Below, in pieces: positions 2,560 to 34,599 of a DNA stretch of 64,000 nt. The notes below the pieces were generated by a model. The model ran no database searches. It was not told where the DNA came from and saw only the letters and a program-made list of their open reading frames with translations. Position 1 is the stretch's first letter. Each line of letters begins with the position of its first letter. The stretch is taken from the NCBI RefSeq assembly GCF_011045215.1, contig NZ_CP049201.1. One strand, 5' to 3'. The stretch comes from Escherichia coli (lineage in GTDB: Bacteria; Pseudomonadota; Gammaproteobacteria; Enterobacterales; Enterobacteriaceae). A program made the translations under genes and the position numbers.

Positions 2560-5415
2560 TTACAGCGCGGCGATAACAGCCTGCTGTTCAATCAGCTTAG
2601 CTTTCGCTTCTGCATAGCCTTCCAGCTTCTCACGCTCTTTCGCGATGACCGCTTCCGGTGCGCGGGCGACAAAGCCTTCATTCGCCAGCTTGTTCTCGAT
2701 ACGGCTGATTTCGCCTTCGATCTTCGCCACTTCTTTCGCCAGACGCGCCAGCTCATCTTCTTTGTTGATGAGGCCAGCCATCGGGATCAGCAGCTCTGCG
2801 CCGTCGATGATCTTCGTAACGGAAACCGGACCTTTGTCATCGGCAGGCAGCACGGTGATGCTTTCCAGACGCGCCAGGGTTTGCAGGAAGCCACGGTTTT
2901 CATTTACGCGACGTTCTGCATCCGCGCTGCAACCACGCAGCAGCAGCTCCAGCGGTTTGCCCGGCGCGATGTTCATTTCTGCACGGATGTTACGTACCGC
3001 AACGATCGCCTGTTTCAGCCATTCGGTGTCGGCCAGTGCGGCTTCATCAACCTGAGATGCATCGTACTGCGGGAACGGCTGCAGCATGATGGTGTCGGCA
3101 GTGATACCGCAAAGTACTTTCACACGCTGCCAGATGGTTTCGGTGATGAACGGAATGATCGGATGCGCGAGGCGCAGCAGACCTTCCAGTACAGTCACCA
3201 GCGTATGGCGAGTACCGCGCAGTTCGGCTTCGGTTCCACCGTTCATTACCGGCTTGGTCAGCTCCAGATACCAGTCGCAGAACTGGTTCCAGGTGAACTC
3301 ATACAGAATGCCTGCAGCGATATCGAAGCGGAAGCTGTCCAGCGCTTCGCGGTACGCTTTGATGGTCTGGTTGAACTCTGCCAGAATCCAGCGGTCCGCC
3401 AGCGACAGCGTCATTTCACCACCGTTGAAGCCGCAATCCTGACCTTCCGTGTTCATCAGCACAAAGCGGCTGGCGTTCCACAGCTTGTTACAGAAGTTAC
3501 GGTAGCCTTCCAGGCGTTTCATATCCCAGTTGATGTCACGACCGGTAGACGCCAGTGCCGCCAGGGTGAAGCGCAGGGCATCGGTGCCGTGCGGCTCAAT
3601 ACCGTTCGGGAACTGCTTCTCGGTGCGCTTACGGATTTTGTCCGCCAGCTGCGGCTGCATCATATTGCCGGTACGTTTCTCCAGCAGTTCCGGCAGCGAA
3701 ATACCGTCAACCATATCCAGCGGGTCAATAACGTTACCCTTGGATTTGGACATCTTCTGACCTTCGTCATCACGAATCAGACCAGTCATGTAAACGGTGT
3801 GGAACGGCACCTGCGGTTTGCCATTTTCATCTTTGATGAAGTGCATGGTCATCATGATCATGCGGGCAATCCAGAAGAAGATGATGTCGAAACCAGATAC
3901 CATCACGCTGGTTGGGTGGAACTGGCGCAGTGCGTCGGTGTTTTCCGGCCAGCCTAGGGTAGAGAAGGTCCACAGCGCAGAAGAGAACCAGGTGTCGAGA
4001 ACGTCTTCGTCCTGACGCAGGGCAACGTCGGCACCGAGGTTATTTTCCTTGCGCACTTCTTCTTCGTTGCGGCCAACATAAACGTTACCTGCTTCGTCGT
4101 ACCATGCAGGGATACGGTGACCCCACCACAGCTGACGAGAGATACACCAGTCCTGAATATCGCGCATCCAGGAGAAGTACATGTTTTCGTACTGCTTCGG
4201 TACGAACTGAATGTCGCCGTTCTCAACCGCTTCAACCGCCGGTTTCGCCAGTACATCGGCACGCACGTACCACTGGTCGGTCAGCATTGGTTCGATAACT
4301 ACGCCGCCACGGTCGCCGTAAGGAACGGTCAGGTCGTGCGGTTTAATTTCTTCCAGCAGGCCGAGTGCGTCAACCGCAGCAACGACTGCTTTACGTGCAG
4401 CAAAACGCTCGAGTTTCTGGAACTCTGCCGGGATTTCGCTGGAATAAACGTCAGATTCGTTACCTTTGGTATCGAACACCTGGGCGCTTTCACGGATATC
4501 GCCGTCAAAGGTCAGGATGTTGATCATCGGCAGCGCGTGACGTTTACCCACTTCATAGTCGTTAAAGTCGTGCGCCGGAGTGATTTTCACGCAGCCGGTG
4601 CCTTTTTCCATGTCGGCGTGTTCGTCGCCAACGATCGGAATACGACGGTTAACCAGCGGTAGAATGACATATTTGCCAATCAGGTCTTTGTAACGCGGAT
4701 CTTCCGGGTTAACGGCCACGCCGGTATCGCCCAACAGGGTTTCCGGACGGGTAGTCGCAACCACCAGATAATCTTTACCGTCTGCGGTTTTCGCGCCGTC
4801 AGCCAGCGGATAGCGGATGTGCCACATCGAACCTTTCGATTCGCGGTTTTCCACTTCCAGGTCAGAGATAGCGGTGCGCAGTTTCGGATCCCAGTTTACC
4901 AGGCGTTTGCCACGGTAAATCAGGTCTTCTTTATACAGACGAACGAAAACTTCTTTCACCGCATTGGACAGGCCTTCGTCCATCGTGAAGCGTTCACGCT
5001 CCCAGTCGACGGAGTTGCCGAGACGGCGCATCTGACGGGTAATCGTGCCGCCGGATTCCGCTTTCCATTCCCAAATTTTGTCGATGAAAGCTTCGCGGCC
5101 GTAGTCGTGACGGGTTTTACCTTCTTCTGCGGCAATCTTGCGCTCAACGACCATCTGGGTAGCGATCCCGGCGTGGTCAGTACCGACCTGCCACAGGGTG
5201 TTTTTGCCCTGCATGCGCTGATAGCGGATCATGGTATCCATGATGGTTTGCTGGAAGGCGTGACCCATATGCAAACTGCCGGTGACGTTCGGCGGCGGGA
5301 TCATGATGCAGAAACTTTCCTGGCTTTCATCGCCATTAGGCTTAAAGTAGCCCTGCTTTTCCCAGTGCTCGTAAAGCGGCTGTTCGATATCTTGTGGGTT
5401 GTATGTCTTTTCCAT
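2560..5415 (-). CDS. valS: Valine--tRNA ligase
   Basis: 951-aa ORF with class I aminoacyl-tRNA synthetase HMGH and KMSKS motifs and a C-terminal coiled coil; matches E. coli ValS length. Confidence 0.97.
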
Positions 5416-13182: not shown

Positions 13183-13267
13183 GCCGAAGTGGCGAAATCG
13201 GTAGACGCAGTTGATTCAAAATCAACCGTAGAAATACGTGCCGGTTCGAGTCCGGCCTTCGGCACCA
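13183..13267 (+). tRNA. leuX: tRNA-Leu (anticodon CAA)
   Basis: 85-nt sequence GCCGAAGTGGCGAAATCGGTAGACGC...TTCGAGTCCGGCCTTCGGCACCA with CAA anticodon loop, long variable arm and encoded CCA end. Confidence 0.93.
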
Positions 13268-13456
13268 TAAAAAGCTTTTTTCAAGTCTACCAACGTCTAC
13301 TTTAGTCCATAAAAACAGTAAGTTAAGCAGAGTTTTGGCCTTTCTTAGTCTGTTCACGTCTACTTACTTCTATCCACATATACCAACGAATGATGGTATA
13401 ACTGGTGGTATCTTCGGTTCGATTGATTTTGATACCAACAGCGGAGGTATCAACTG

Positions 13457-14707
13457 ATGGCACTTACTGATATCAAAGTTAGGACTACCAAGCCCTCCGA
13501 CAAACCTTTCAAACTCACAGATGGGCAGGGTATGCACCTGCTGATCAACCCCAATGGTTCAAAATACTGGCGACTCCAATACCGTTTCGATGGCAAACAG
13601 AAAGTTTTAGCATTGGGTGTTTATCCAATGGTCTCTCTTGGTGAAGCTCGCAGGAAACGAGATGAGGCTAAAAAGTTGGTATCTGATGGTATCGACCCTT
13701 CCGAGAAGAAAAAGGCAGACAAGATCGAGCAGAGCGAAGCTCTTACTTTTGAATCTGTTGCCAGGGACTGGCATAAGGCTTGTAAAAGGAAATGGTCAGA
13801 TTCCCATAGCGAGAGAGTTCTAAAAAGCATGGAAGATGGTCTCTTTACTGCTCTTGGTAAAAGAAAAATATCCGAGCTTAATACCAGAGATCTTCTTGCC
13901 CCTATCAAGGCTGTTGAAGCTTCTGGGCGACTGGAAGTTGCTTCCCGCCTACAGCAAAGAACAACGGCAGTGATGCGATATGCTGTCCAGAACGGGCTGA
14001 TAGATTACAACCCTGCCCAGGAGATGGCAGGAGCTATTGCAGTAGCTAAAAGAGTCCACAGGCCAGCTTTGCCATTCGAACGATTCTCAGAACTTTTAGA
14101 ACGAATTGATAGTTTCAAGGGTAGAAAACTCACGAAGTTAGCCGTAAAGCTGACATTGCTCATTTTCATTCGTTCCAGTGAACTTAGGTTTGCTCGTTGG
14201 TCAGAGATAGATTTCGACAATGCCATGTGGACTATCCCTGGGGAACGTGAGCCATTGCCAGGGGTCAAACATTCTCATCGAGGCTCAAAAATGAAGACAC
14301 CACACCTCGTGCCGTTAAGTCGCCAGGCTATAGAACTCCTCAAAGCTATCAAAGAAATCAGCGGTGAATGTGAACTTGTATTCATTGGTGATCATGATTT
14401 TAGAAAGCCTATGAGTGAAAACACGGTAAACAAGGCTTTAAGGTCTATGGGCTACGACACTACGGTTGAAGTATGTGGACATGGTTTTCGTGCGATGGCA
14501 TGTAGTGCGTTGATCGAATCGGGAAAATGGTCAAGGGATGCTGTTGAACGGCAGATGAGCCACCAAGAGCGAAACTCCGTTCGTGCTGCCTACATTCATA
14601 AAGCAGAACACCTTGATGAAAGAAGGCTTATGTTGCAGTGGTGGGCTGATTACCTTAATGCCTTGAAAGATAGGTTTATCAGTCCCTTTGATTTTACAAC
14701 AAAGTAG
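13457..14707 (+). CDS. P4-family tyrosine integrase
   Basis: 416-aa ORF adjacent to the tRNA; N-terminal KPFKLTDGQGMHLLINPNGSKYWRLQYRFDGK arm-binding region and a C-terminal catalytic domain typical of P4-like integrases. Confidence 0.9.
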   Translation: MALTDIKVRTTKPSDKPFKLTDGQGMHLLINPNGSKYWRLQYRFDGKQKVLALGVYPMVSLGEARRKRDEAKKLVSDGIDPSEKKKADKIEQSEALTFESVARDWHKACKRKWSDSHSERVLKSMEDGLFTALGKRKISELNTRDLLAPIKAVEASGRLEVASRLQQRTTAVMRYAVQNGLIDYNPAQEMAGAIAVAKRVHRPALPFERFSELLERIDSFKGRKLTKLAVKLTLLIFIRSSELRFARWSEIDFDNAMWTIPGEREPLPGVKHSHRGSKMKTPHLVPLSRQAIELLKAIKEISGECELVFIGDHDFRKPMSENTVNKALRSMGYDTTVEVCGHGFRAMACSALIESGKWSRDAVERQMSHQERNSVRAAYIHKAEHLDERRLMLQWWADYLNALKDRFISPFDFTTK

Positions 14708-14794
14708 CTTGATCAACGATTAACTATCCACTGGCATAGCCGTGTGATATGATTACAATGGCTATATTTTTAATTTAAATTTAATAGGTAAAAA

Positions 14795-15934
14795 ATGTCC
14801 ACAATTAACCCCGCAATTTTTTCTTTTTTCTCTGGTTCAGGATTTCTTGATCTTGGATTTGAAAAAAATGGTTATGAAGTGGTTTTCGTGAATGAATACC
14901 ATGCTCCGTTTATGGATGCATATAAACATTCGAGGAAAAAATTAAATATAGCACCACCTCGTTTTGGGTATGCAGAGTGCAGTATTGAAGATGTAGAACA
15001 TGAAAAAATTAAGTCTTCTATGCTTCAACTTAAAAATGAGGGGCGATTGACTGGATTTATTGGTGGTCCACCATGCCCGGATTTCTCTGTAGCGGGTAAA
15101 AATAAAGGTCGAGATGGTGAAAACGGTCGGCTTTCACAAAGCTATATTGATATCATTCTTGAAATGAAACCAGATTTCTTTCTTTTTGAGAATGTTAAAG
15201 GTCTATACCGTACCAGTAAACATAGGGAATTTTTTGACCATTTAAAAACTCAATTAGAATCGGTTGGTTATTGTTTGCATGAAAAACTAATAAATTCTAT
15301 TGAATATGGTGCTCCTCAAGATAGGCAACGAATCATATTGATTGGTTTCCTTGATGAAAAATATGCAAGCCAATTCAATTGGGGGCAAAGAGTCTACCCT
15401 GAAAGAACTGCATTTGAATATAAATGGCCGACGACAAACCAATTTTCAGAAAACACTTCTGTTATAAAACCAAAGGGTATCCCAGAAGAGTTAACAGTAG
15501 AGCATTGGTTCAAGAAAAACCAGGTTGATAATCATCCAAATGCAAAGCATGTATTCGCGGCAAGAGCAGGGCTTGCGAGGTTTTTGACTGTCGAAGAAGG
15601 GGATGATAGTAAAAAATCCTATAAAAGGTTACATAGATGGAGATTTTCACCAACTGCTGCTTACGGTAATAATGAGGTACATTTACATCCTTATAAACCA
15701 AGAAGAATTACTGTTGCCGAAGCATTAGCAATTCAGTCTTTACCAAAAGAATTTGAATTACCTGCTTATATGACTCTGTCTAATATGTTTAAAACTGTCG
15801 GTAACGGTGTACCCTACTTAGCAGCGGCCGGTATTGCCAAATCTATTATAGAGCATTTAGGAATCGAATATGAGAGTAACTGCGGCGAACTTAGCACAGG
15901 CGATTGCCAATCTACCAAGAAACACGCAGTTTAA
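14795..15934 (+). CDS. DNA (cytosine-5)-methyltransferase
   Basis: Motif I FSGSGF, motif IV GGPPCPDFS, motif VI ENV and motif VIII QDRQR, in the canonical order. Confidence 0.85.
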   Translation: MSTINPAIFSFFSGSGFLDLGFEKNGYEVVFVNEYHAPFMDAYKHSRKKLNIAPPRFGYAECSIEDVEHEKIKSSMLQLKNEGRLTGFIGGPPCPDFSVAGKNKGRDGENGRLSQSYIDIILEMKPDFFLFENVKGLYRTSKHREFFDHLKTQLESVGYCLHEKLINSIEYGAPQDRQRIILIGFLDEKYASQFNWGQRVYPERTAFEYKWPTTNQFSENTSVIKPKGIPEELTVEHWFKKNQVDNHPNAKHVFAARAGLARFLTVEEGDDSKKSYKRLHRWRFSPTAAYGNNEVHLHPYKPRRITVAEALAIQSLPKEFELPAYMTLSNMFKTVGNGVPYLAAAGIAKSIIEHLGIEYESNCGELSTGDCQSTKKHAV

Positions 15935-16946
15935 TTATGTAAATGTGCGAAATTCGGGAAGAATCATTGTAACGAATGTTCAACTTCCCGAAGGCCCAAT
16001 AGAATTCAAAAGATTCGATCCAAAAAAGGGTGAGACACTGCATAGTTCTAAATCGGAAAGCATCTCCACACAAATGTTGTGGAGATTGGCTAATGCTTTA
16101 CAGGAAGATGTCCCTGTCAATTTGGATCGTATTTTTGGTGCAAGCTATAATACACGTGCTGTTCTCGAAAGCCTTTTGGCCCATACTCCTGAGTTTTATT
16201 GGTGTAAGCTTGATCGCCTTGAGGTAATGAACACTCAGAAAAATATTAAAAAAGGTCACAAGCACCTTATTTATAGACCAAATGACCCACATGAAAATGG
16301 TGTAGCAATAGAACATACTACTAATGTTATAATTTCTGAAATGAATTTAGATGTTGTCCATCAATCAGTTGATATAGAGACAATCTTACCTACTAAAGGA
16401 ATGACGATTGAGGAAAAAAGACGTCATGCACAAATTCAAATCTCATTAGTAAAAATAGGTCATTACTTAGGTTATCGGACATGGGTTGCAGCAAATGATC
16501 GTGGCCTCCAATATAATGGAAAATCTATAGCCCAAATGGATGGGGTCATAGATAATTTAAGAAATGAACAAGTGCTTCAATCATATGATAAAGCTATCAA
16601 AGAAGCTCGGCTTATAGATTGTATTTGGTTTCGAAATGGAAAATTAATGCCTGCAGTTATGGAGATTGAGCATAGCACTGGTATTAAAAGTGGTTTGGTA
16701 AGGATGAAACAATTTTATGATTATGCACCACAGTTAAAAAATATACGTTGGACCGTTGTGGCACCTGACGAATATAGAAATAAAGTTATAGAGTTTTCTA
16801 ATATGCCACAATTTAAAGAATTAGATACTCGATTCTTCCCCTATTCTGCTGTAGAGGAACTCTATTCATTATGTGCAAGAAGGAATCCTCAAGGAATTAC
16901 AGACGATTTCCTTGATGCATTCATGGAAAAGTGTGTGACACATTAA
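15870..16946 (+). CDS. Hypothetical protein, candidate restriction endonuclease partner of the methyltransferase
   Basis: 358-aa ORF overlapping the methyltransferase 3' end by 65 nt on the same strand; assignment by context only, no motif recognised. Confidence 0.45.
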   Translation: MRVTAANLAQAIANLPRNTQFNYVNVRNSGRIIVTNVQLPEGPIEFKRFDPKKGETLHSSKSESISTQMLWRLANALQEDVPVNLDRIFGASYNTRAVLESLLAHTPEFYWCKLDRLEVMNTQKNIKKGHKHLIYRPNDPHENGVAIEHTTNVIISEMNLDVVHQSVDIETILPTKGMTIEEKRRHAQIQISLVKIGHYLGYRTWVAANDRGLQYNGKSIAQMDGVIDNLRNEQVLQSYDKAIKEARLIDCIWFRNGKLMPAVMEIEHSTGIKSGLVRMKQFYDYAPQLKNIRWTVVAPDEYRNKVIEFSNMPQFKELDTRFFPYSAVEELYSLCARRNPQGITDDFLDAFMEKCVTH

Positions 16947-17083
16947 TCCTTCATAATCAGTTACCGGAGCAAATTACTTTTCTCCGGTTGGTTAACTGAA
17001 TATTAGTATTAAAATCTGATGGTGTTTATTTTATAAATATCAAATGTAATGGTATTTTCAATAATTATATCTAAGAGCGGTTT

Positions 17084-17893
17084 ATGAGAGTAATTAGCCC
17101 CTTTGAGGAATTGAAGAACTGGTTTAATCTTGATAACTATGAACCGATAAAATCGTTTACAATCAAGGAACTACATAGAGAGATTGTCTTTAGAGAAGCG
17201 ATTTTCGACAGTGTAAATTTTGGATGGGAAGATGATAATCAAAATTTAAGGTCTATCCTTGAAGGTAATCCTATTTTAAGCAGACAAGATAATAATCATG
17301 GTCATTTTGGCAAGGGCCAAAGACATGTTGCGCAGGTTAGCTTTGGTGATATAAAAAAATTAGAGAATAAGTTGATAATGTTTAGCATGGATTTTTTTGA
17401 AGAAAATGGTGATTTCAAAAAAGAGTTGAAAAAGAAACCAATAACAAAAACTATGAGAGACTTTTTTCTCAACAAAAATAGCAGCAAGATGTATGTATCA
17501 TTTGATTTGGGGTTATCTAGTGATGAGGAAATTATATCAGCCCTGCAAACTATGCTTCCAACTCTAAGGAAAGAATACGAGATTGACCCAGTAAAAACAG
17601 AAAAGATAGGGCTCGCAAAAATAAGAAAACTTGTCGATTACAACATTATTCCTATGATGGACTTACTAATTTGGTCAAAATTCAAAAAAGCAAAAATCTC
17701 AAATATGGTCTTGTCTCGTGTGTTGTATCCTGATTTCACTCACGAGATTAGAGGCGAAGATCACATTAAAGATACAGACAGGCCCATTGCTGAGAAGGCT
17801 TTAAATGGAGAGATAACTCGTAGTTTGGAGTACTTTCTTAGTAAAAACAGTCATCTCATCAACATACCGATTTCAGAACTCGGATCTCTCTAG
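17084..17893 (+). CDS. Hypothetical protein
   Basis: 269-aa AT-rich ORF, no recognisable motif. Confidence 0.5.
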   Translation: MRVISPFEELKNWFNLDNYEPIKSFTIKELHREIVFREAIFDSVNFGWEDDNQNLRSILEGNPILSRQDNNHGHFGKGQRHVAQVSFGDIKKLENKLIMFSMDFFEENGDFKKELKKKPITKTMRDFFLNKNSSKMYVSFDLGLSSDEEIISALQTMLPTLRKEYEIDPVKTEKIGLAKIRKLVDYNIIPMMDLLIWSKFKKAKISNMVLSRVLYPDFTHEIRGEDHIKDTDRPIAEKALNGEITRSLEYFLSKNSHLINIPISELGSL

Positions 17894-18058
17894 CTATAAA
17901 TCATCATGCAATTGTCAAGGGGATGGTGAAAATATTTTTCTTCCCCTAAATTTCTCTCCATTCTTTCCTCATCTAAATTTTCAGTTATCAGCACTCCCTT
18001 CATAGATACAAATCTGTGTGGCTAATATCTCCTTAACGGAAGCGGAGGAGACAGCCAA

Positions 18059-18265
18059 ATGAATACAACCAATCAAAGCTTAATTCGTTTACCAGAAGTC
18101 TTGAAACGAACTGGTTTCGGCAAGGCCTGGATCTATCGTCTGATCAGTGAAGGTCGGTTTCCGGCACCCGTTAAGATCGGAATTCGTGCCGTTGCTTTTG
18201 TCGAGAGTGAAGTTGACGAGTGGATTCTATCAGTTATCGAAACAAACAGAATTAAAGTTGCTTAA
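18059..18265 (+). CDS. alpA: AlpA-family DNA-binding regulator (excisionase-like)
   Basis: 68-aa ORF; LIRLPEVLKRTGFGKAWIYRLISEGRFPAPVKIG is a typical AlpA/MerR-like helix-turn-helix. Confidence 0.8.
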   Translation: MNTTNQSLIRLPEVLKRTGFGKAWIYRLISEGRFPAPVKIGIRAVAFVESEVDEWILSVIETNRIKVA

Positions 18266-18286
18266 TTAAACCTAGGAGAGATTTTT

Positions 18287-18601
18287 ATGAATATCGAAGA
18301 ATTTATGAATGAAGAAAACCATATGTGCAATTTAGGCGAGGATCTTTTTTGCAAGATCTTCGAACCCGGAGCGATTTATGATTTGCCGAATAGCGATTTT
18401 AATAAAGAAATCATTTACTGGCTCAGTCAGTATCTTGTCGGAAATTTGAGACAACCTTTAGACGCGATCTCTGAGCTTGATATTTTCGAGCAGTTTTATG
18501 TTTACGAGACATGGTTCTCGCTAATTAAATGCCCAGATGAAATTAGAAATTTATCGAAACGGATAATTCGATATCAGATTGGGTTAAAAACCATTCTTTG
18601 A
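18287..18601 (+). CDS. Hypothetical protein
   Basis: 104-aa ORF starting 22 nt after alpA. Confidence 0.45.
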   Translation: MNIEEFMNEENHMCNLGEDLFCKIFEPGAIYDLPNSDFNKEIIYWLSQYLVGNLRQPLDAISELDIFEQFYVYETWFSLIKCPDEIRNLSKRIIRYQIGLKTIL

Positions 18602-18732
18602 AAGAACCTATATTTAGTACTATTTTGTAAATTGCATTGTTGAAATGATAGTGCTATTTGCTTTTTGATTTACAAAACATCTTTAACTTCTTTTAAAATA
18701 ATGGGTTAACTATTTTAAGTGAAAAGAAAGGA

Positions 18733-18762
18733 TTATAATATCCCTCTAGAGGGATATTATAA
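18733..18762. promoter_or_regulatory. Perfect 30-bp palindrome upstream of the recombinase trio (candidate operator or recombination core site)
   Basis: ttataatatccctctagagggatattataa is its own reverse complement; lies about 130 bp upstream of the first recombinase gene. Confidence 0.5.
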
Positions 18763-18893
18763 ATTTTCGGCCGGTATGCGTCATTGTAAAAGGGAATAAT
18801 ATTAAATTCAGGAAAATATATTTGTAAATTGCTTATGTTATATGCTTTATTTATTTTCACTGACAATTAAATGTAAATAGAGGCGATATTACT

Positions 18894-20156
18894 TTGAAAT
18901 ATAAAATAAAAAGATTGAAGAATAAAGATGGTATCAGAAGTTGCATTATTATTAATGAGAGCAACGGATTACCCTTGGTTTATTCTAACTTATATATGAG
19001 TGTTATTTCACGAACAAATAGCTATTCATTTTCAACAATGGAAGCAATAGCAAATGCTTTGCTTTTATTTGAAAGATATAATGCTTACATGAATGTGGAT
19101 GTTTTTGATATGGTAAATCCTGACATCGAAAAACTTGTCTCGAACAAAGGATATTTATTCGGGTTAATGAATGCCCTTTCTTACAGAAACGACTTAGAGA
19201 ATGTTACAAGCATTCTTAAAGAACAACATGTCTCTAAAAGAACCCTTTATTTCAAGATAATGACAATTGAAAATTACGTCAAATGGTTTTTTGATAACAT
19301 TGCTATCAATAATATTGATTCTTCTCGTTATGAAGCAATCAGTCGAGCATTTGATTTTATAAAGCCAAGAATAGAGAACGGAAAGAATTACAATATTGAA
19401 AGCGAAAGCAAATCATTGACAAATGAGCAAGTTACAACTTTGACTGATATGGTAAGTGTTAAATCTAAGATTAATCCATTTTCGGAGCATGTAAGGTTTC
19501 GAAATAATCTAATAATTAAAATTTTATTAGAGACAGGTATTAGGGGAGGGGAACTACTTAATATTAAGTTGGTTGATTTTGACTATGTCCACAAAAGTCT
19601 ATGCATAGTAAGAAGGCCAGATGATCAAAACGAACCACGATTAAGGCAACCATTGGTTAAAACTTTAGAAAGAAAAATACCATTGAGTATAGAATTGACT
19701 GAGTTAATACAGAATTATATTAGTGATTTCAGAGGTAAGCAGTGTCATGCAGGGGAGCATGACTATCTGCTTGTTACTCATAGCAGTAAAGGTCAATTAG
19801 GTCATGCATTAACTATTTCAGGTTATCAGAAAATTTTCGAACAAATTAGGAAAAATAGTAATGTTTTGAGCGATATTGTGGGGCATTCGCTAAGACATAC
19901 TTGGAATGTGAAATTCTCAGAAATGATGCTCATGAATTCGAACTCTCAGGAATATATTACTTATGAGAAAGTAAGAAATTATCTTATGGGGTGGAAAAAG
20001 AATAGTACAACCTCAGATATCTATAACCAAGCATTTATAGCACAAGAAAGCCGAAAAATAATGGCTGTTATTAATCCACTCAAAAACATAGTAGAGGACA
20101 AATCCAATGTTTCAAACTCTAAGAAAGCTACAAGAAAGTCAATATTCGGTTTTTGA
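18894..20156 (+). CDS. Tyrosine recombinase-like protein A (first of three tandem genes)
   Basis: 420 aa, probable TTG start; catalytic-domain elements TGIRGGE (Arg box), HSLRHT and a C-terminal Tyr (TSDIY). Confidence 0.75.
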   Translation: MKYKIKRLKNKDGIRSCIIINESNGLPLVYSNLYMSVISRTNSYSFSTMEAIANALLLFERYNAYMNVDVFDMVNPDIEKLVSNKGYLFGLMNALSYRNDLENVTSILKEQHVSKRTLYFKIMTIENYVKWFFDNIAINNIDSSRYEAISRAFDFIKPRIENGKNYNIESESKSLTNEQVTTLTDMVSVKSKINPFSEHVRFRNNLIIKILLETGIRGGELLNIKLVDFDYVHKSLCIVRRPDDQNEPRLRQPLVKTLERKIPLSIELTELIQNYISDFRGKQCHAGEHDYLLVTHSSKGQLGHALTISGYQKIFEQIRKNSNVLSDIVGHSLRHTWNVKFSEMMLMNSNSQEYITYEKVRNYLMGWKKNSTTSDIYNQAFIAQESRKIMAVINPLKNIVEDKSNVSNSKKATRKSIFGF

Positions 20157-21432
20157 AACCAAGGATGGTAATTTCAAAGTGAACTTTTCTTATTCCAAGT
20201 GGAAGATAAGTGAAAGTATAACATTGAACATTGATTCTTTAAGAGTGGTCATCAGTGCATATATACCTATCAAAACCACTTTGGCATATTTCGCTATAAA
20301 TTATAGTGCCAGTTATACTAAGAAAATGTTTTATGCAGTAAAGCATTACATTAAGGCCTGTAATACGAATGATAGCTTGTTTTCTAAAGATTGCATAAAG
20401 TATTACTATAAAGTTGTGAGCTCATTAGATTACACACATGCAGAGACAGTCAAATATTTTTTTATGAAGATGAGTGGTCTTTACCCATCTTTGTTTTCGG
20501 CAGAAGCAATCATATTTTTAGAAAATATTAAAGTTAAAAAAACAAATGCAAACAAGTCTATAAAGACACATGATTATAAAAAAGGTCCCTTTAGTGACTC
20601 GCAATTAAAGGTAATTATAGATTCTGTAGCGATAGCTTATAAGGAAGAAAAGGTAAGTCTGTCAAACTATCTGCTAACCTTCCTTGTTGCATATTCCGGG
20701 CGGCGACCTATGCAAATATCTCAACTTGAAGCTGGTGATCTCTTTGCTTTTAATGGAGAGTACTTTCTCAATATCCCAAGAATTAAACAACGAAATGGAT
20801 ATAGAAAAGAGTTTAGAAAATTACAAATTCCAGAAGAGCTTTTTAGCCAATTGACATATCTCGTTGAAGCTGTGAATTCGCTGGTCAGTGACACATTAAA
20901 AATCGATTTAAGTGAAAAACAAAAGAGAAAACTACCAATTTTTATAAACACATATCCATTCAAAAAAGGATGTGTTGAGCTAAACATGATTGAAAGTGGT
21001 GGATTAAAACTTAACCCCTATGCCATAACACTAAAAATAAGGAACACTATAAATCGTTCAATAAATGAATATCAAGCCTATCTGGGGTGTATAAATTCGC
21101 GCAGATTTAGATATTCATTAGGCACTAAGGTTGCACAATTGGGTTATAGTCCTTCACTGATAGCAAATGTTTTGGACCATTCTTCAATCAATTCTGTTAT
21201 GAGTTATATAGAAAATACAGCGGAAAATGGCAAGAGAATTAATGAAGCTGTAAATGAACTAATGAAGCCACTGGCTAACAAATTTATTGAGGGAAAAGAG
21301 CTTCAGAAAGAGTTAGATTCTTTGAAGCATTTGATAGAAGAATACTGCGGTGGATATAAAACTAACTCTTTTGATAATACAGCAATATCGTTAGTAACTA
21401 ATTCTATCGACGATATGATCAATAGCATTTAA
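20107..21432 (+). CDS. Tyrosine recombinase-like protein B (second of three)
   Basis: 441 aa; AYSGRRPMQISQLE Arg box, box II RRFRYSLGT with Arg in place of the usual first His, and a C-terminal Tyr (VMSYI); GAGGA ribosome-binding site; overlaps gene A by 50 nt. Confidence 0.7.
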   Translation: MFQTLRKLQESQYSVFETKDGNFKVNFSYSKWKISESITLNIDSLRVVISAYIPIKTTLAYFAINYSASYTKKMFYAVKHYIKACNTNDSLFSKDCIKYYYKVVSSLDYTHAETVKYFFMKMSGLYPSLFSAEAIIFLENIKVKKTNANKSIKTHDYKKGPFSDSQLKVIIDSVAIAYKEEKVSLSNYLLTFLVAYSGRRPMQISQLEAGDLFAFNGEYFLNIPRIKQRNGYRKEFRKLQIPEELFSQLTYLVEAVNSLVSDTLKIDLSEKQKRKLPIFINTYPFKKGCVELNMIESGGLKLNPYAITLKIRNTINRSINEYQAYLGCINSRRFRYSLGTKVAQLGYSPSLIANVLDHSSINSVMSYIENTAENGKRINEAVNELMKPLANKFIEGKELQKELDSLKHLIEEYCGGYKTNSFDNTAISLVTNSIDDMINSI

Positions 21433-21444
21433 AAGAAGGATAAA

Positions 21445-23052
21445 GTGATGAAAGAAATCCATGATAAAATGATTAATAACTTCATTATCGCTAATAAGGC
21501 CCATGCGAAAAATTTTGGAAATTTTGAGTGGGATAATTCAAGTTGGGGAGGCGGAATTACATTTTTTAGCGGAATCAAGGTTAGAATGGGGAACAAGAAT
21601 AAGAAATTAATGAATTATAACATTGCAGAGTTCGCAAAAGCATATGTATGGCATGAGTGCTTTCATGATTTATCTGTAGCTTTCAGAGTGCTGAGATTAT
21701 TTAGGATATTAGAAATTGCCATAGGTAAAACAAATAAAGAAGTTAAGATTTCAAGTATAGATCATAAAGTATTAGATGAAGTTATGACTATTGTTCAAGA
21801 AAATTTTGCAATATCCACTTCTTATAAAATATATTTAGATCTTAGGGTATTATGTTCTTTTATGTCTAAGAACGAAATGTTGCCAGAATCCATTACACGA
21901 TGGTCATATCCATTTAAGGCATATGATGCTTACACAAATAGCACAATGGATTCGATGGGAAATTTATCCAATCAGAAAAAACTTCCTGATGAAAAGGCTA
22001 TAGATTTTATTGGTAAAATATTTAGCTCTAATCCAGTTAATGAAAGGGATATATTTACATCTTCTATTTTTGCATTGCTCTTATGTGCTCCATCTCGAAT
22101 TAGTGAAATTATGCTTTTAGAAGAGGACTGTGAAGTTATAGTTGAAGATAGTAATGGCATATCAAGATATGGTTTGCGATTTCTTTCTCTGAAGGGCTTT
22201 GGATACAATACCAAATGGATTCCAGACTGTATGGTTTCTGTAGCTTCAAAGGCTATCATGCGATTGAAAAAACTTACAAGGAATGCAAGGGTTGTTTCTC
22301 GGTTAATAAAAGCAGGGGAAATTAATTTATACGAGTCATTAAACAAAAGTGCGTTTGATTGTTTAACAATTGAAGATCTCCACAAACTTGGCTTTGTTAT
22401 AAATCAATTAAATATCTCCCAAGAAAATCTAAAATTCTTGGCTAAGATAAAACATGGTACAGTCAGTGTAAAAGCATTTTGGATTTATATAGAGCGAAAG
22501 AATGTTAATTCTGAAAATATTAATGCTAATTTATGCTCCATAAATCATAATTTATTGGACTCTATCAAGGGTGCTGATATTTTTACAACAATTAAGGCAT
22601 CTTCAAAGTATTTTAGAGCGGATTTTCGCACCGATAATATGAATAACATATTTCATAGGAATATACATTTTAACTGTGATGGTTCTGTTTTAATTTTCCG
22701 CAGCCATCAAATTAGACATTTACTTAATACTATAGCTCAACGAAGCGTATTGTCAGAGATACAAATTGCCCAATGGTCTGGGAGAAGGAGTGTTAAGCAG
22801 AATTCAGTATATGATCATATGTCTCACAACGAGTTATCAGAACTATCAAGGAAACTATTGAACGGAAACACCTACGAAGAAACAAAAATTTCAGCATCTT
22901 CATTTAATGAACAATCGATTATTATGAATTTGATTAAAGATAAATTTGAAAAACTAGAATTAAAAATCCAAAATTCAGATCCAAGAAAAAGAAAATATAT
23001 TCTGGAAAAAATTAAAGATTTAAGATTGGAAATTGAATACATATTAATGTGA
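21445..23052 (+). CDS. Tyrosine recombinase-like protein C (third of three)
   Basis: 535 aa, GTG start; CAPSRISEI Arg box, HQIRHLL box II and a C-terminal Tyr (NSVYDH). Confidence 0.7.
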   Translation: MMKEIHDKMINNFIIANKAHAKNFGNFEWDNSSWGGGITFFSGIKVRMGNKNKKLMNYNIAEFAKAYVWHECFHDLSVAFRVLRLFRILEIAIGKTNKEVKISSIDHKVLDEVMTIVQENFAISTSYKIYLDLRVLCSFMSKNEMLPESITRWSYPFKAYDAYTNSTMDSMGNLSNQKKLPDEKAIDFIGKIFSSNPVNERDIFTSSIFALLLCAPSRISEIMLLEEDCEVIVEDSNGISRYGLRFLSLKGFGYNTKWIPDCMVSVASKAIMRLKKLTRNARVVSRLIKAGEINLYESLNKSAFDCLTIEDLHKLGFVINQLNISQENLKFLAKIKHGTVSVKAFWIYIERKNVNSENINANLCSINHNLLDSIKGADIFTTIKASSKYFRADFRTDNMNNIFHRNIHFNCDGSVLIFRSHQIRHLLNTIAQRSVLSEIQIAQWSGRRSVKQNSVYDHMSHNELSELSRKLLNGNTYEETKISASSFNEQSIIMNLIKDKFEKLELKIQNSDPRKRKYILEKIKDLRLEIEYILM

Positions 23053-23061
23053 GGAGATTAT

Positions 23062-23460
23062 ATGGCAAGAAAGTTTTATGATAAAGAAATAAAAGCTATT
23101 GTTAAACTTATTGAAACCTGGAGTAAGCCTGATTTCACTTGGGATTCTTTATGCGTGGCTTGCAAAAAAATTTTAGGTAAAGTACCTACACGGCAAGCAT
23201 TAAGCCAGCATAGTGAGATTGTCGTTGCGTATAGGACCAGAAAAAGATCTGGTATGGTTAAACGTCAAAATACGAAGTTACCCGGTAGCCTGAGCCTTGC
23301 GGCGAAAAGAATAGAACGACTTGAAAATGATAATTCGGCACTAAAATATGAAAATAATAATTTACTGCTTATGATTCAAAGAATGCACGAAAATGCTTAC
23401 AGGCATAATATATTGGCTTCTATTCTTGAAGAAGAATTTCCACAGAGAGCAAGAAAATAA
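23062..23460 (+). CDS. Small basic protein with a predicted coiled coil, coupled to the recombinase trio
   Basis: 132-aa ORF starting 9 nt after recombinase C; the C-terminal half (AAKRIERLENDNSALKYENNNLLLMIQRMHENAY) looks coiled-coil. Confidence 0.5.
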   Translation: MARKFYDKEIKAIVKLIETWSKPDFTWDSLCVACKKILGKVPTRQALSQHSEIVVAYRTRKRSGMVKRQNTKLPGSLSLAAKRIERLENDNSALKYENNNLLLMIQRMHENAYRHNILASILEEEFPQRARK

Positions 23461-25259: not shown

Positions 25260-26405
25260 CTATAAACGAATTTTTATCGCCTTGTTTAAAGGTTTCATTG
25301 CGTAGATATTTGAGAAGGTCGTGTGTGTTTTGTGAAGAATGGTCTTACCAAAGCTTCTCAGAAGCTCGATGTAATGCTTTATGGAAGCAAGCCACTCTAC
25401 GAATCTGAGATGCTTTTGCCGTTGTACTGCATTTTTTTGAAGAATCTTTCCTACGATTTCGTTTCGTTTGTCTTCTCTAAGCCGTAATTCCAGTTCTGCA
25501 ATTTTTTCAACGATACTTTCCTTTCTCTCAGTGGTTTTCAACACTGTTGCAGGAGCAGGAGCAGCAGGTTGGTCTTTTGTCGATATGTCGCTTCGTAGAG
25601 CTTCTAAGTGGTCGGGGTTGTAGTTAAGCCGATTACTGAGATTTGCCCAGGAGTAGCTCTTGCCCAATTGTGAAGCTTTGAAAGCTATGCCTGTGTATTC
25701 GAAAGAGAAGCCGTTCATTTTACCGGTAGAGGCAATATTGGCCTTCCAAGATACTTCAGCTTCTTCCAGCCTCTTGATAAAAGTTAGAAGGTCCGGCTTA
25801 TCAGATAAACTTTTATCAAGTATCTGCTGCAGAGCTTCTCTTGGTGAAAGCACCCCGGTTCGTTCCGATAGCATTTTCTCATTACGGGACACTCTCTTCC
25901 GCTTCGGTTGTGCTTGCGAGGGGGGAGATGCAGTTTTGGTCACTGTCAGGCCATGAGCGATTTCGAGTTTACTGATGATCTGTGTGCTGATGAGGTTTTC
26001 GTTCCTACCCAAGTAGAGCTTCCCACCATTGAGATCTATGCGACTTGCGATAATGTGTATGTGCTGGCCATCGTCGTCATGAAGCACATAGCAACGAAGG
26101 TGAGTATCCCTGAACCCCATCCTCTTCATGTAGTCATCTGCGATAATGGACCACTGTTCATTCGTTAGTGTTTCACCGTCGGGTAAGCGAAGTGAGTTGT
26201 GCCAAACGGGTTTTGCGACATCTAGGCGAAGATGCTTGGTGCTATCGAATTCAGCGATCATTTCAACGGCTGAATCACTTAACATGTTCCCGCCAATGAC
26301 GACTGGATCGCTTTTGTGGTGTGCTCCCGATTGTAATACATAACGAACAACACCAGCGAAGCTCTTACCCCTCTTGATCTTCCGCATACCCTTCACGAGG
26401 GACAC
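25260..26405 (-). CDS. Relaxase (MobA/VirD2-type mobilisation nuclease)
   Basis: 381 aa; three-histidine motif HDDDGQHIHII typical of the relaxase/mobilisation nuclease domain; overlaps the upstream mobC-like gene. Confidence 0.75.
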   Translation of the reverse strand: MSLVKGMRKIKRGKSFAGVVRYVLQSGAHHKSDPVVIGGNMLSDSAVEMIAEFDSTKHLRLDVAKPVWHNSLRLPDGETLTNEQWSIIADDYMKRMGFRDTHLRCYVLHDDDGQHIHIIASRIDLNGGKLYLGRNENLISTQIISKLEIAHGLTVTKTASPPSQAQPKRKRVSRNEKMLSERTGVLSPREALQQILDKSLSDKPDLLTFIKRLEEAEVSWKANIASTGKMNGFSFEYTGIAFKASQLGKSYSWANLSNRLNYNPDHLEALRSDISTKDQPAAPAPATVLKTTERKESIVEKIAELELRLREDKRNEIVGKILQKNAVQRQKHLRFVEWLASIKHYIELLRSFGKTILHKTHTTFSNIYAMKPLNKAIKIRL

Positions 26406-31528: not shown

Positions 31529-32680
31529 TTAATTTTCAATATCAGGAGTATTAAATGATCCTGTCATAATGGTATACATATCAATTGATTGCTGGTCAAA
31601 GAATCCTTTCGGCCAACTAGAAAGTTTTCCATCTTTGCCAATAGATATCTTTTCTGCAGTAGATTCATTATTCTCATGTGAAATATAAAATAACGAAATT
31701 AGCTCAGGTGAAAAGTCAGGAGATGTTCTTGCTACGACACGGATTCCGTTGAGAAGGTGATCGCTATGAGTTTCTATGAATACCTGTACTCCCGCTTGAG
31801 CAGTGTAAGCTATTAATCTACCCATATAGCTTTGTCCTCTAGGGTGCAAATGGGCTTCCGGGTTTTCTAAAACTACTAATTCGCCCGGTTTTGCTAAAAG
31901 TAATGCTGAAACAATACTCAAAGCATAGCTATAACCAAAACCAATGTTTTTGGGTTTAGTTTGTTTTCCTGACTCAGCCTGTATTGTGTTATAAGCAATG
32001 TTTGCACTAACTTCCAATTTTGGCTGTATTTTATAATTTGGGGATATTTCATCCATCCATGCCTGTATATTATTCGCAACCCTTACATTATTATAATTAT
32101 GATGTATTCTTGGGTCGTCTTTATTTGGATTACCATCTTTCAGTATTAGTCTATCTTGCCTATTCATTATATTGTCTAATACTTCGATGACATATTCACC
32201 TTTTTTCCCCAACCAATCGCTATGAAAATTGTGTTGTGATAAAGAAATATTGTCTCTTGGACCAATACGTTCGGCTTCAATATATTGAAAATTACTTGCA
32301 TGTATAAAGTTTTTAATTGTTTTAATGCTATCCATACCTGAAATACATGGAAGTTCATTACGAAGATTTGCTGAGTCCTCTTGTGTAACCCCCCAACTGA
32401 CTTCACATTCTTTAACTGAAAGAGTGATTTTCAGTTGATCATCATCTGAAATAAAGTCATTAATAATATCGTCAATACGACCAATGTTTATCAGTTCACC
32501 ATTTAACTTTATATCATTTTTACTACTAAAATCAGACTGTAACACCATACCTATGGCTTGCATTACTGTACTCTTACCGACAGAGTTATTACCACAAAAT
32601 ACATTTAGACCTGACAAATCAAAAGATTGCTCTTTGTATGATTTAAAATTTTTGAGTTTTATCGATTTAATAGGGAGCAT
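31529..32680 (-). CDS. ABC-type (AAA_21-like) ATPase
   Basis: Walker A GNNSVGKST near the N-terminus; LENPEAHLHP Walker B/D-loop region and ETHSDHLL H-loop near the C-terminus; ATG sits 3 nt after the upstream gene's stop, with a GAGGG ribosome-binding site. Confidence 0.75.
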   Translation of the reverse strand: MLPIKSIKLKNFKSYKEQSFDLSGLNVFCGNNSVGKSTVMQAIGMVLQSDFSSKNDIKLNGELINIGRIDDIINDFISDDDQLKITLSVKECEVSWGVTQEDSANLRNELPCISGMDSIKTIKNFIHASNFQYIEAERIGPRDNISLSQHNFHSDWLGKKGEYVIEVLDNIMNRQDRLILKDGNPNKDDPRIHHNYNNVRVANNIQAWMDEISPNYKIQPKLEVSANIAYNTIQAESGKQTKPKNIGFGYSYALSIVSALLLAKPGELVVLENPEAHLHPRGQSYMGRLIAYTAQAGVQVFIETHSDHLLNGIRVVARTSPDFSPELISLFYISHENNESTAEKISIGKDGKLSSWPKGFFDQQSIDMYTIMTGSFNTPDIEN

Positions 32681-32682
32681 TA

Positions 32683-34599
32683 TCAATTACCCTCATTAGC
32701 ATTAACAATCTTAATGCCTGTGCTTTGTTCAAGAATTTTCGCAAAAGAATTGAATCTATATAATATAGTTATTTTCTTTCCTGTTGAGGTAGAGATAGAG
32801 TCCTTAAACCCTCGCTCTGCTTCAATGTAAGTCTGTGAATCCCATGTGGCATATTCTTTTGAATTGCTATCAATAGCAGAATAAAGGGTATCAACCAATT
32901 TATCAGAATTTTTCAGCAATAACTCTTCTTGTTCCTCAGTAACATAATAGAAATAGTAAATTATCACTTCATAAAGTTGCTTACTTATAGGTGATGTATT
33001 AGAGCCAATCTCTTTTATGAAAGCTAAATCACCGAAAACATCATAGGCGAGGTTTAAAGCCCTCAAATATTTTCTTTCTATTTGAAGATACTCGTTGCAT
33101 TCATTCGAAATGTACGCACTTCCTAAATCTATTTCTTTTTCGTTTAATAAGTTTAATTTATATAGATTTAAGTTTTCCATGGCTTTTGATAAAAACTTAT
33201 CATAGGAATTAAAATTATAATTTTTAAAGCCAATATTTATAAATGCAAGAGCAGCAAGGCAAAGCTCCATATCCTTTTGTCTATCAGGCTTAACCTTACC
33301 ATGCGTTGCTTGTTTGAATTCGTTTTTGGATGCCAGATACCGTAAAAACTTAACACTTGAACCTTGATTCAGGGCCGAACGAATTTCTTGATCACTTAAC
33401 TTAACACCATATGTATTGATACGGTGGAATAATTCAACTATGAGATCAGTGCTATCTTTATTCATTTCTATAAAGTAAGCCGTGATTTCATATTCTCTTA
33501 TGGCTCTTTGTTCAGTGCGAGTAAGCTCACCAAACTCTTTACCATTTAAATCCTCAAGGATATCAAGTTTAGAAAGTTTAAATTCTCCACTCATAAAATC
33601 ATAAATTGTTGTGATCCGTTGTAAACCATCAACAACGACCCACTTATCTTCTGCGATTCGATTACCAAAATAAAATACAGGAAGTGGGAGTTTTAAGAGA
33701 ATAGACTCGATTAATTTAGACTTCTTCTCATTATTCCAAATACGATCTTTTCTTTGGAAGTCAGGTTGTAGTTCAATATCACCAAAATGAACCCGATCAA
33801 AAATGAGAGATAAAACCGGAGTCTTGGAGGTAATTCTTGCAACACCAAGTTTAGCTTGTAGAGTTTTTAATTCCAAGTTCAACTGTGATGATGTTGTATC
33901 ATTTTCACCCTCATCTACTCCATAAGTATTGGGTGACTCTATAAGTTCTTCTACAGTAGTATTATTACTAATTTTTAATGTTGGCACCTCTATATTATAA
34001 TCAAGAGTCACAACTGAGTTAGCCATATCTGCGGAAAGCTCTTTAAATCTATTAAGAGTAACCTCAACCATTTTTGAAGCAATTTCAGATGGGAATTTCT
34101 TCAAAACTATTTGATAAGCATCATCAAGGCTTTGAACTAATTCAACCTGCTGTTCATAAATTTTCCCAAGATTCAAATTGAGAAAATTATCAATTTTTTT
34201 TCTTAAAACCCTAAATTCAGAGCCTTGAACTTCTGATAATGTCGCTGCTTCATGGACATTATGACTACGCAATAACAGGTGTTTTTTGTTTTCATACTTG
34301 AAATGTTGAATATAGGGTAAGTTAGCAAATATTGTTTCTGGTTGGTTCCTGCTCGAAGAACTACCGTAAAGAACCTGCTCTACATTACAAAAACCTCTAA
34401 TATTTAAATTGCTGTAAATCGATTCAAGCTCTGATAATGAACGTGTTTTAGATTCAGAATTAGAAGAGACTTTATATTTACCGTTTTCACGATCAATGCT
34501 TATAATACATAGTGGAGGCGTAGAAGGATTAATTGGCTGTAGCTGTTTGCCAAAAAGAAGATTTTCGATGTCGTTTAGCACTTGTTCAAAGTTAAGCAT
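32683..34599 (-). CDS. DUF262 (ParB-like nuclease fold) domain protein
   Basis: 638 aa; central QPDFQRKDRIWNNEK...VVDGLQRITTI matches the DUF262 IPxFQR and DGQQR signatures. Confidence 0.7.
   Translation of the reverse strand: MLNFEQVLNDIENLLFGKQLQPINPSTPPLCIISIDRENGKYKVSSNSESKTRSLSELESIYSNLNIRGFCNVEQVLYGSSSSRNQPETIFANLPYIQHFKYENKKHLLLRSHNVHEAATLSEVQGSEFRVLRKKIDNFLNLNLGKIYEQQVELVQSLDDAYQIVLKKFPSEIASKMVEVTLNRFKELSADMANSVVTLDYNIEVPTLKISNNTTVEELIESPNTYGVDEGENDTTSSQLNLELKTLQAKLGVARITSKTPVLSLIFDRVHFGDIELQPDFQRKDRIWNNEKKSKLIESILLKLPLPVFYFGNRIAEDKWVVVDGLQRITTIYDFMSGEFKLSKLDILEDLNGKEFGELTRTEQRAIREYEITAYFIEMNKDSTDLIVELFHRINTYGVKLSDQEIRSALNQGSSVKFLRYLASKNEFKQATHGKVKPDRQKDMELCLAALAFINIGFKNYNFNSYDKFLSKAMENLNLYKLNLLNEKEIDLGSAYISNECNEYLQIERKYLRALNLAYDVFGDLAFIKEIGSNTSPISKQLYEVIIYYFYYVTEEQEELLLKNSDKLVDTLYSAIDSNSKEYATWDSQTYIEAERGFKDSISTSTGKKITILYRFNSFAKILEQSTGIKIVNANEGN

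Follow-up and report, generated by a model that had tools for sequence, protein, structure and literature searches.

A conserved palindrome at the probable attachment site of a GInt-type recombinase cassette within a leuX island of Escherichia coli

The stretch of DNA analysed here, referred to below as the window, comprises 64 kb of E. coli-type chromosome, in which lptG, yjgR, ahr and the tRNA-Leu(CAA) gene leuX can be recognized. A genomic island has been inserted at leuX, and its main features are as follows.

13183-13267, plus strand: leuX, tRNA-Leu(CAA), found by ARAGORN; integration target of the island, with its 3' part (13244-13261) forming the left direct-repeat copy
13457-14707, plus strand: P4-type tyrosine integrase, annotated in the related copies L001 and L002; Pfam Arm-DNA-bind_3, Phage_int_M and Phage_integrase on the identical gene of L015
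17084-17893, plus strand: DUF6387 protein, a backbone gene of the island family
18059-18265, plus strand: AlpA-like helix-turn-helix protein, with Pfam Phage_AlpA and a weak NCBIfam excisionase match
18287-18601, plus strand: hypothetical protein of 104 aa, the last gene ahead of the gin cassette
25260-26405, minus strand: relaxase of the MobA/VirD2 type, annotated in L002; Pfam Relaxase on homologues
34800-34817, plus strand: right copy of the leuX repeat (direct repeat), attR of the P4-integrase island

A stretch of 18 bp from the 3' end of leuX (GTTCGAGTCCGGCCTTCG) is directly repeated at 13244-13261 and 34800-34817, and these two copies bound an island of 21.6 kb (approximately 13262-34817) with a low G+C content of about 33%. 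Its other genes include a cytosine methyltransferase with a partner gene, several small genes, and defence-type cargo. All hallmarks of a P4-integrase tRNA island can be seen, namely an integrase beside a tRNA gene, repeats of the tRNA 3' end, a directionality factor, and a relaxase; the AlpA-like protein probably serves the P4-type integrase as recombination directionality factor. Since a relaxase gene is present, the island should be mobilizable, and by its gene content it is classed here as an integrative mobilizable element. Islands of the EARL/ROD21 type and other P4-integrase tRNA islands are alike in the integrase by a tRNA gene, the tRNA 3'-end repeats, DUF6387, an AlpA-type factor, small hypothetical genes, and the relaxase, and DUF6387 also adjoins AlpA in islands of the EARL family (PMC10763509). 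However, the gene table of ICEKp258.2, an EARL island, lists no gin cassette (PMC10763509), and the likeness of EARL islands to the island in the window is one of gene types.

Downstream of the 104-aa gene lie three genes described in the initial annotation as a recombinase trio, followed by a fourth small gene.

18888-20156, plus strand: ginA, tyrosine recombinase with Xer-like NCBIfam matches
20107-21432, plus strand: ginB, second tyrosine recombinase (NF041502 site-specific integrase, 246 bits)
21445-23052, plus strand: ginC, recombinase-related protein without a family match
23062-23460, plus strand: ginD, small accessory protein, whose stop codon closes the cassette

According to tblastn and BLASTP comparisons against the ssb-targeting GInts of pETN48 and pPAD8, the four products are homologous to the Gin proteins of these elements: GinA, GinC, and GinD share 34.7% (E = 9e-59), 30% (E = 2e-66), and 39% (E = 2e-23) identity with their counterparts in pETN48, and GinB shares 28% identity with GinB of pPAD8 (E = 7e-44). 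A 98%-identical homologue in E. coli O55:H7 RM12579 (NC_017656.1) is one of the ginC-ginD blocks listed by Idola et al. 2023 (Additional file 10, PMC10214605). GInts were defined by Bardaji et al. 2017 (PMC5385486) as elements with ginABCD at the 5' end, cargo from the ginD stop codon onward, and imperfect flanking repeats of 10-17 nt. In the window, the order ginA, ginB, ginC, ginD is the same as in the described GInts, and the cargo DNA adjoins the ginD stop, with homology between islands of different gin types resuming at 23454, 6 nt before the end of ginD. Judged by homology and gene order, the trio and the small gene are a GInt-type ginABCD cassette, extending over 18604-23453.

The extent of this cassette can be read from comparison with L003, which represents islands with the same backbone and an unrelated gin cassette (type 2). 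The two islands are 97% identical over 13243-18603, have nothing in common over 18604-23453, and are homologous again from 23454. The swapped unit is composed of 130 bp, a palindrome, a further 126 bp, and ginABCD; comparison thus shows the cassette, including its presumed attachment region, to be a discrete unit swapped between islands. The order DUF6387, AlpA, site, ginABCD, relaxase is also found beside ssrA/ypjA in E. coli, fljA in Salmonella, and leuX in Rahnella, and the P4-type integrase occurs in either orientation among the islands that have a gin cassette.

Several further properties are common to the cassette and the described GInts, including variable DNA beginning at the ginD stop, a site about 150 bp upstream of ginA, TGTAAA motifs, and an apparent crossover region of 6 nt that changes between copies, the last being seen in relatives and in type 2. 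Differences are equally evident. The gin operon of a GInt lies at the 5' end of the island beside attL, with repeats of 10-17 nt made by the Gin proteins, whereas the cassette in the window lies 5.5 kb inside an island bounded by the 18-bp leuX repeats, lacks attL and attR flanks of its own, and has an unsplit joint site. In addition, GInts are described as non-mobilizable, whereas the present island has a relaxase. One peculiarity of the window concerns ginA itself: the start codon is ATT where L001, L002, L024, L025, and L026 have ATG, and the first usable start is a TTG at 18894. With the ATG lost, this copy of ginA may be weakly expressed.

The palindrome within the swapped unit occupies 18733-18762 (TTATAATATCCCTCTAGAGGGATATTATAA). 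As the initial annotation had claimed, it is exact over 30 bp, and the flanking bases 18732 (A) and 18763 (A) are unpaired. It is the longest perfect palindrome of the window, the runner-up being 24 bp long (2514-2537), and in 300 first-order Markov simulations the longest palindrome was usually 16-18 bp and never exceeded 24 bp. Tolerating 3 mismatches brings up no second occurrence in the 64 kb, no match appeared in any of 100 shuffles, and its central TCTAGA is observed once in the window against 9.9 expected. The palindrome lies 5.5 kb within the island. From its end, 126 bp remain to the ginA start at 18888, which is the RefSeq start in homologous loci, and 132 bp to the TTG at 18894, in agreement with the distance of about 130 bp given previously; the centre is 140.5 bp upstream of ginA. 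A second copy, for which a search had been proposed, was absent from the island and from the window with up to 3 mismatches, and half-sites in the window matched at chance level only, without any copy of a half-site or of the spacer context.

The other proposed check, presence in homologous elements, gave a positive result: the palindrome is kept in every related copy fetched, at a fixed distance from ginA, even though the GinA proteins of these relatives range from 45 to 97% in identity. The centre CCCTCTAGAGGG is invariant in all relatives, and the arms compare as follows.

Window: left arm TTATAATATCCC, right arm GGGATATTATAA
E. coli CB209 and strain 135 (about 72% DNA identity): left arm TCTAATATCCC, right arm GGGATATTAGA
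Rahnella (GinA 72%): left arm TATAATTTCCC, right arm GGGAAATTATA
Metagenomic group (GinA about 45%): left arm TTTTAATAACCC, right arm GGGTTATTAAAA, up to 32 bp perfect

Four independent arm changes can be distinguished, A/T at position 5 (Rahnella, L026), T/A at 4 and A/T at 10 (L033 group), and A/C at 10 (L005). All are two-sided, and no one-sided change occurs inside +/-13. Changes that occur only in pairs indicate selection on sequence and symmetry together, and comparison shows this apparent selection to be strong. The outermost TT (18733-34) falls in a variable hexamer, and the base of L001 equivalent to 18733 is C, without a compensating change; judging from the relatives, strict constraint on the symmetry seems to extend over 26-28 bp (18735-18760). 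Six contigs ending at the palindrome (L029-L032, L034, and L035) were considered as context breaks and rejected, the ends being better accounted for by a probable assembly artefact at k=31; the ENA scaffold L033 has a 32-bp perfect palindrome at the site, and Logan contigs with a 28-bp version read through it. TATAAT within the arms was likewise rejected as a promoter, as it is not conserved (TCTAAT in L005, TTTAAT in L033). Cassettes of other types have different symmetric elements at comparable positions, a 20-bp palindrome in type 3 and an 8-bp palindrome with 11-bp inverted repeats on either side in type 2. The palindrome is real and conserved, and it is clearly a functional site tied to the recombinase genes.

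The region around the palindrome can be divided as follows.

18604-18728, plus strand: left ('3'-arm-like') part of the gin attachment region, swapped with the gin genes; its motifs are kept in relatives with GinA 45-72% identical
18729-18734, plus strand: hexamer AGGATT, the inferred crossover spacer, overlapping the outer TT of the palindrome
18733-18762, symmetric: palindrome; left arm (18735-18747) is the putative core motif C adjoining the spacer, the right arm its inverted second copy, and the centre CCCTCTAGAGGG is invariant
18763-18887, plus strand: right ('5'-arm') part and presumed gin promoter region, with TGTAAA at 18785, 18823 (within TTTGTAAATTGC), and 18872

Motifs of the left part are TTTGTAAATTGC at 18624-18635, an inverted TTTACAAA at 18669-18676, 75 bp from the palindrome centre, and a C'-like AGTGAAAAGAA at 18718-18728. 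Core motif C (ATAATATCCCT...) begins at 18735, coinciding with the left arm, and the right arm repeats it perfectly in inverted orientation. The match of C' (AGTGAAAAGAA) to the reverse complement of C (AGGGATATTAT) is weak, 6 of 11 positions in an 11-6-11 register, and the same 6 of 11 are found in the L033 group and in type 2. TGTAAA is the commonest 6-mer in the 150 bp upstream of ginA among 12 loci (25 occurrences against 1.7 expected) and is conserved at about -66 and about -17 relative to ginA, canonical GInts included. The palindrome centre is also the mirror axis of an inverted pair of TTTGTAAA, placed at -75 and +77 in the window (approximately +/-76 bp), and in about 20 metagenomic loci the pattern matches both strands about the equivalent centre. 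From the hexamer to ginA the distance is 157 bp, and the attL crossover of canonical GInts lies approximately 143-160 bp upstream; those of pETN48 and pPAD8 sit at the 3' end of the ssb gene, where the attL crossover reads CCGTTCTAGAG as against CCGTTCTAACG or CCGTTCTAAGT at attR.

Natural variation among the relatives allows the crossover to be placed. In L052, a single metagenomic assembly, the left arm of the attachment region ends in ...AAGTAAAACTAA-AGGATT, an insert of 175 nt follows, and the sequence then continues as AGGATT-TTAATAACCCTCTAGAGGG... The insert consists of two tRNA-Tyr genes, the second of which is cut in the T-loop (AATCCT, the complement of AGGATT) and has its 3' end completed by the left arm of the element. 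The adjacent stretch of tRNA, CGAACCTCC, is similar to the palindrome's left arm, TTAATAACCCTC, as expected of a target half-site. On its face, the arrangement bears the mark of site-specific recombination between the element and a tRNA gene, after which an aberrant excision carried flanking DNA along. In the Salmonella copies L027, also known from a single assembly, and L038, the island ends at the palindrome, which is intact; compared with the close relative L028, the upstream context of L027 switches at -19 to -14 from the palindrome centre, where a fimbrial ORF is cut. A full-length homologue of this ORF, sought as an empty target, was not found.

The same few positions emerge from copies that remain unsplit. 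Nineteen distinct but otherwise nearly identical sites of the metagenomic group vary on the left only at -19, -18, -16, and -15, with no change from -14 to +14; the left-distal flanks recombine freely with the right side, while the palindrome and about 5 nt leftward of it stay linked rightward. Type 2 repeats the pattern: 11 E. coli copies contain a window of 5-6 nt in 7 variants between the invariant GGTGTACATAA and CTAGATCTACC, a layout that is apparently the same design of C', spacer, and C. Comparison thus shows the apparent exchange in relatives to fall in the 6-bp spacer at the left edge of the palindrome (-19 to -14) and not in TCTAGA. The view of the initial annotation, that the site is linked to the recombinases, stands to this extent: the palindrome belongs to the gin attachment region, is conserved in homologues, and changes symmetrically. 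The placement of the exchange between 12-bp arms, in the central TCTAGA, does not stand; it is contradicted by the L052 and L027 junctions, by the variability at -19 to -14, and by the hypervariable spacer of type 2.

The spacer also points to a target. AAGGATT in the window is identical to part of the T-arm of E. coli tRNA-Tyr (GGTTCGAATCCTT), which makes tRNA-Tyr genes the predicted target; on the chromosome, the gin system would probably recombine with the T-arm of such a gene. Among 12 type-1 and 56 type-2 copies in complete E. coli genomes, none was found split by gin integration; Gin-driven movement of these islands must from this be rare, and activity of the site rare or indirect.

The explanation that best accommodates these observations, and which we are somewhat more inclined to accept than to doubt, is that the region is the unrecombined joint site (attI) of the GInt-type cassette, comprising C' (18718-18728), the spacer AGGATT (18729-18734), and C (18735-18747). 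If the crossover lies in the AGGATT hexamer, the left arm of the palindrome becomes the recombinase core motif beside the spacer and the right arm an inverted second copy. When the island is drawn as a circle, its genes take the position of GInt cargo, and the intergenic region takes that of the GInt joint site. Integration of a GInt by its Gin proteins normally splits this joint site into attL and attR; here it would have stayed whole because leuX, and not the gin system, was the island's route into the chromosome. Gin recombinase subunits would bind both arms; the subunit on the left arm would act on the spacer, and the copy on the right would hold a second subunit of the same protein, which, as a guess, would serve architecture or autoregulation from a place directly ahead of the gin promoter. 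A counterpoint to this joint-site model is that ssb-GInts have no long palindrome by the crossover, pETN48 having only the 8-bp AGTTAACT. No perfect palindrome of the kind that abuts the crossover here, 26-30 bp long, has been described for GInts, and the canonical ssb-GInts examined lack one.

Exchange in GInts proceeds by staggered cuts of 6 nt, and the attachment site changes between cycles (Bardaji et al. 2017, PMC5385486); in strand-biased circularizing integrative elements (SE), the spacer likewise changes with each cycle (Idola et al. 2023, PMC10214605). In GInts, circular excision and integration require the four gin genes together. The SE joint site is defined by imperfect inverted repeats of 13-19 bp with a 6-bp spacer. 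Both SE elements and Tn554 resemble the present cassette, as proposed here, in having a joint site (attS) with a 6-bp spacer between imperfect inverted C and C', in the swapping of the spacer for that of the target ('footprint/fingerprint'), and in the need for a small fourth protein. However, the SE order is intA-tfp-intB-srap, with the non-catalytic protein second, whereas here two recombinases are followed by the non-catalytic and the small protein; moreover, no palindrome beside motif C is described for SE elements or Tn554. By gene order and by Tfp and Srap clusters the cassette falls outside the SE group, and its ginC-ginD homologue stands in the GInt list, separate from SE. Idola et al. 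2023 (PMC10214605) also detected no similarity in sequence between the proteins of SE elements and those of GInts.

Core sites such as loxP, FRT, and dif have inverted arms of 11-13 bp around a spacer of 6-8 bp, a form that the perfect 12-bp arms around TCTAGA share; their exchange, however, takes place in the spacer between the arms, whereas here it would occur outside the perfect pair, between the left arm and a poor C'. FRT also carries a third copy of its binding element.

Two other roles were considered and rejected for the palindrome. As an attL border of a nested GInt it would need a partner, and there is no partner site; moreover, the swapped unit begins 130 bp leftward, at 18604. An oriT was set aside, as 6.5 kb separate the site from the relaxase gene and it is swapped together with the gin genes rather than the relaxase.

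Among the competing explanations, the one that survives best, though we consider it unlikely, is that the palindrome is mainly a transcription insulator. Its RNA would form a 13-bp hairpin serving as a bidirectional intrinsic terminator at the cassette edge, blocking read-through from alpA and the 104-aa gene into ginABCD as well as outward ginA transcripts into the backbone; the left arm would be constrained as recombinase core motif, and the right arm would follow to keep the stem. A terminator scan flags the minus strand, with 13 pairs followed by TCCTTTCTTT, and the predicted RNA fold is stable (-19.4 kcal/mol, z = -3.3), an upstream GAAAG pairing with a downstream UUUUC. T-rich tracts lie on either side in most lineages, every arm change is compensatory, and transcription entering and leaving across attL has been reported for GInts. 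However, the stem contains only 3-4 G-C pairs, the plus-strand tract has 4 T, and the scan flags the minus strand only; the L027/L028 lineage lacks a plus-strand T-tract (AAACTTCTT), and the minus-strand tract of L005 is poor. A terminator would require no constancy of its loop, yet the centre CCCTCTAGAGGG is invariant even where GinA is 45% identical. One-sided changes of the G-U type number zero, and the mirror-symmetric TTTGTAAA at +/-76 bp on the same axis suggests a protein-DNA complex. Rfam 15 returned no family at gathering score, the best being AbsR25 with 25.4 bits against a gathering score of 47.

Somewhat less probable again is an operator for a dimeric regulator other than the recombinases, such as AlpA, GinD, or a host factor, controlling the gin promoter, with the adjoining crossover incidental. 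Perfect dyad symmetry with an invariant centre would suit such a site, as would its location, 126 bp ahead of ginA with conserved promoter-like blocks directly following, its intactness in every copy seen, and the occurrence of different palindromes at comparable positions in types 2 and 3. Against this, L027 and L038 keep the palindrome and an intact gin operon with alpA and DUF6387 absent alongside, and the arm changes show no tie to any particular regulator. The left arm, moreover, resembles the T-arm half of the inferred tRNA target (CGAACCTCC compared with TTAATAACCCTC), which is expected of a recombinase core motif.

A further reading, in our opinion improbable, would make the island a dual-route element that enters leuX by the P4-type integrase and tRNA-Tyr by a Gin route. 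The palindrome, when single-stranded, would fold into a hairpin that rebuilds a double-stranded core motif for the Gin proteins; this would happen after relaxase-driven conjugative entry or SE-like strand-biased circularization, with Gin acting before second-strand synthesis. Formation of the DNA hairpin is calculated to be favourable (-11 kcal/mol, z = -4.8). Folded single-stranded recombination sites exist in the integron attC and in the attachment site of CTX phage.

Least probable of all, by a small step, is the model of the initial annotation with exchange in TCTAGA: its 12-6-12 layout fits loxP-, FRT-, and dif-like sites as well as the SE joint-site definition, the pETN48 and pPAD8 ssb-GInts have TCTAGAG at attL, 143-160 bp upstream of ginA, and exchange between identical symmetric sites would leave no sequence trace, but in L052 and L027 the junction leaves the palindrome complete and on the side of ginA, in recombinant flanks the palindrome with about 5 nt leftward keeps to the right side, the variable 'footprint' lies at -19 to -15 beside an invariant centre, a fully symmetric spacer gives no directionality, and the unique TCTAGA has no partner site in the window. 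TCTAGAG as crossover homology was rejected as largely coincidental, since in the ssb-GInts the motif derives from the stop-codon region of ssb.

Returning to the joint-site reading, the finding refines a known family; it does not amount to a new kind of system. GInts have been known from islands integrated by their own three recombinases, and the structure of their attachment site has been little known. The copies examined, from E. coli, Salmonella, Rahnella, and metagenomes, have gin cassettes as swappable units within mobilizable islands integrated at tRNA or tmRNA genes. As the joint site is intact in these islands, the whole site can be read in one piece; natural variation alone allows the crossover to be placed in a 6-bp spacer, and a strictly symmetric element, with arms evolving in step, abuts that spacer. 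These results offer substrates for biochemistry, a predicted target in the T-arm of tRNA-Tyr, and a means of recognizing such cassettes in genomes. Since gin cassettes move defence and resistance cargo, knowledge of how and where they recombine has practical value.

The distribution of the site is narrow by exact matching. The exact 18-mer core, compared with 100,044 species-representative genomes, gave a single match, in an unrelated archaeal Halorubrum; no match to the palindrome was found in plasmids, and a protein scan of viral contigs found nothing. Carriers of the palindrome number 12 among 5426 complete E. coli genomes, and the exact GinD protein is recorded in 727 blocks of the contig collection.

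Six independent Logan contigs (L029-L032, L034 and L035) terminate in the gin attachment region, 14 nt to the left of the palindrome's centre. These ends are interpreted as an artefact of assembly at k=31, which would break at a perfect palindrome of at least 32 bp. Under this assembly-artefact reading, perfect palindromes of at least 32 bp are systematically broken sites in the Logan contig collection.

Palindromic or inverted-repeat sequences were also observed in other gin cassette types. The third type, linked to ssrA in E. coli O55:H7 (L009, 14338-14357), carries a different perfect palindrome of 20 bp, TTTATTTGACGTCAAATAAA, whose centre is located 134.5 bp upstream of that cassette's own ginA. 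In the type-2 cassette (L003, 8485-8575; also L006 and L007), the inverted repeat CAGTGAGATAG / CTATCTCACTG has 11-bp arms separated by 69 nt and is roughly centred on an 8-bp palindrome, TAGATCTA, which lies immediately right of the hypervariable spacer. Within the window itself, a second perfect palindrome of 24 bp was found at 2514-2537, flanked by convergent ORFs at 1281-2504 (+) and 2560-5415 (-). Its length was attained in just 2 of 300 simulated sequences, and it is probably a bidirectional terminator.

The ginABCD genes of the window are intact apart from the start codon of ginA. Positions 18888-18890 read ATT, whereas ATG is the ginA start codon in the homologous loci L001, L002, L024, L025 and L026; the first in-frame start in the window is the TTG at 18894.

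The stretch 14795-16946, between the integrase and the DUF6387 gene, encodes a cytosine methyltransferase together with a protein that has an NmeDI_C domain. The O55:H7 version of the island (L002) lacks both, so the island's left end is a hot spot for cargo. Right-end cargo also varies among islands that are otherwise identical. In the window it occupies 31529-34599 and, as indicated by genes in L015, L018 and L021 that match in length and position, probably includes two defence-type genes, one for a protein with a GmrSD_N domain and one for an AAA_15/AAA_21 ATPase. Among the canonical and related cassettes (L011/L014, plasmid pETN48; L029-L032), anti-phage cargo is often placed immediately 3' of ginD, and the kinds found there are Avs4, AbiGi, reverse transcriptases, and HEPN and DUF4755 proteins.

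Beyond the right repeat of the island, low G+C (31-36%) extends for approximately 3 kb (34818-38000), and this stretch contains the following features:

35500-36051, ORF
36099-37547, ORF

The continued low G+C suggests that 34818-38000 is a remnant of a second island, arranged in tandem at leuX. Farther to the right, AGTATTACTTTGTAAATTGCA at 58565-58585 is identical to the left-arm motif (18616-18636) at 19 of 21 bases and borders another short low-G+C patch at approximately 58.5-60 kb. This sequence may be a leftover of another gin-type attachment region or of an island border.
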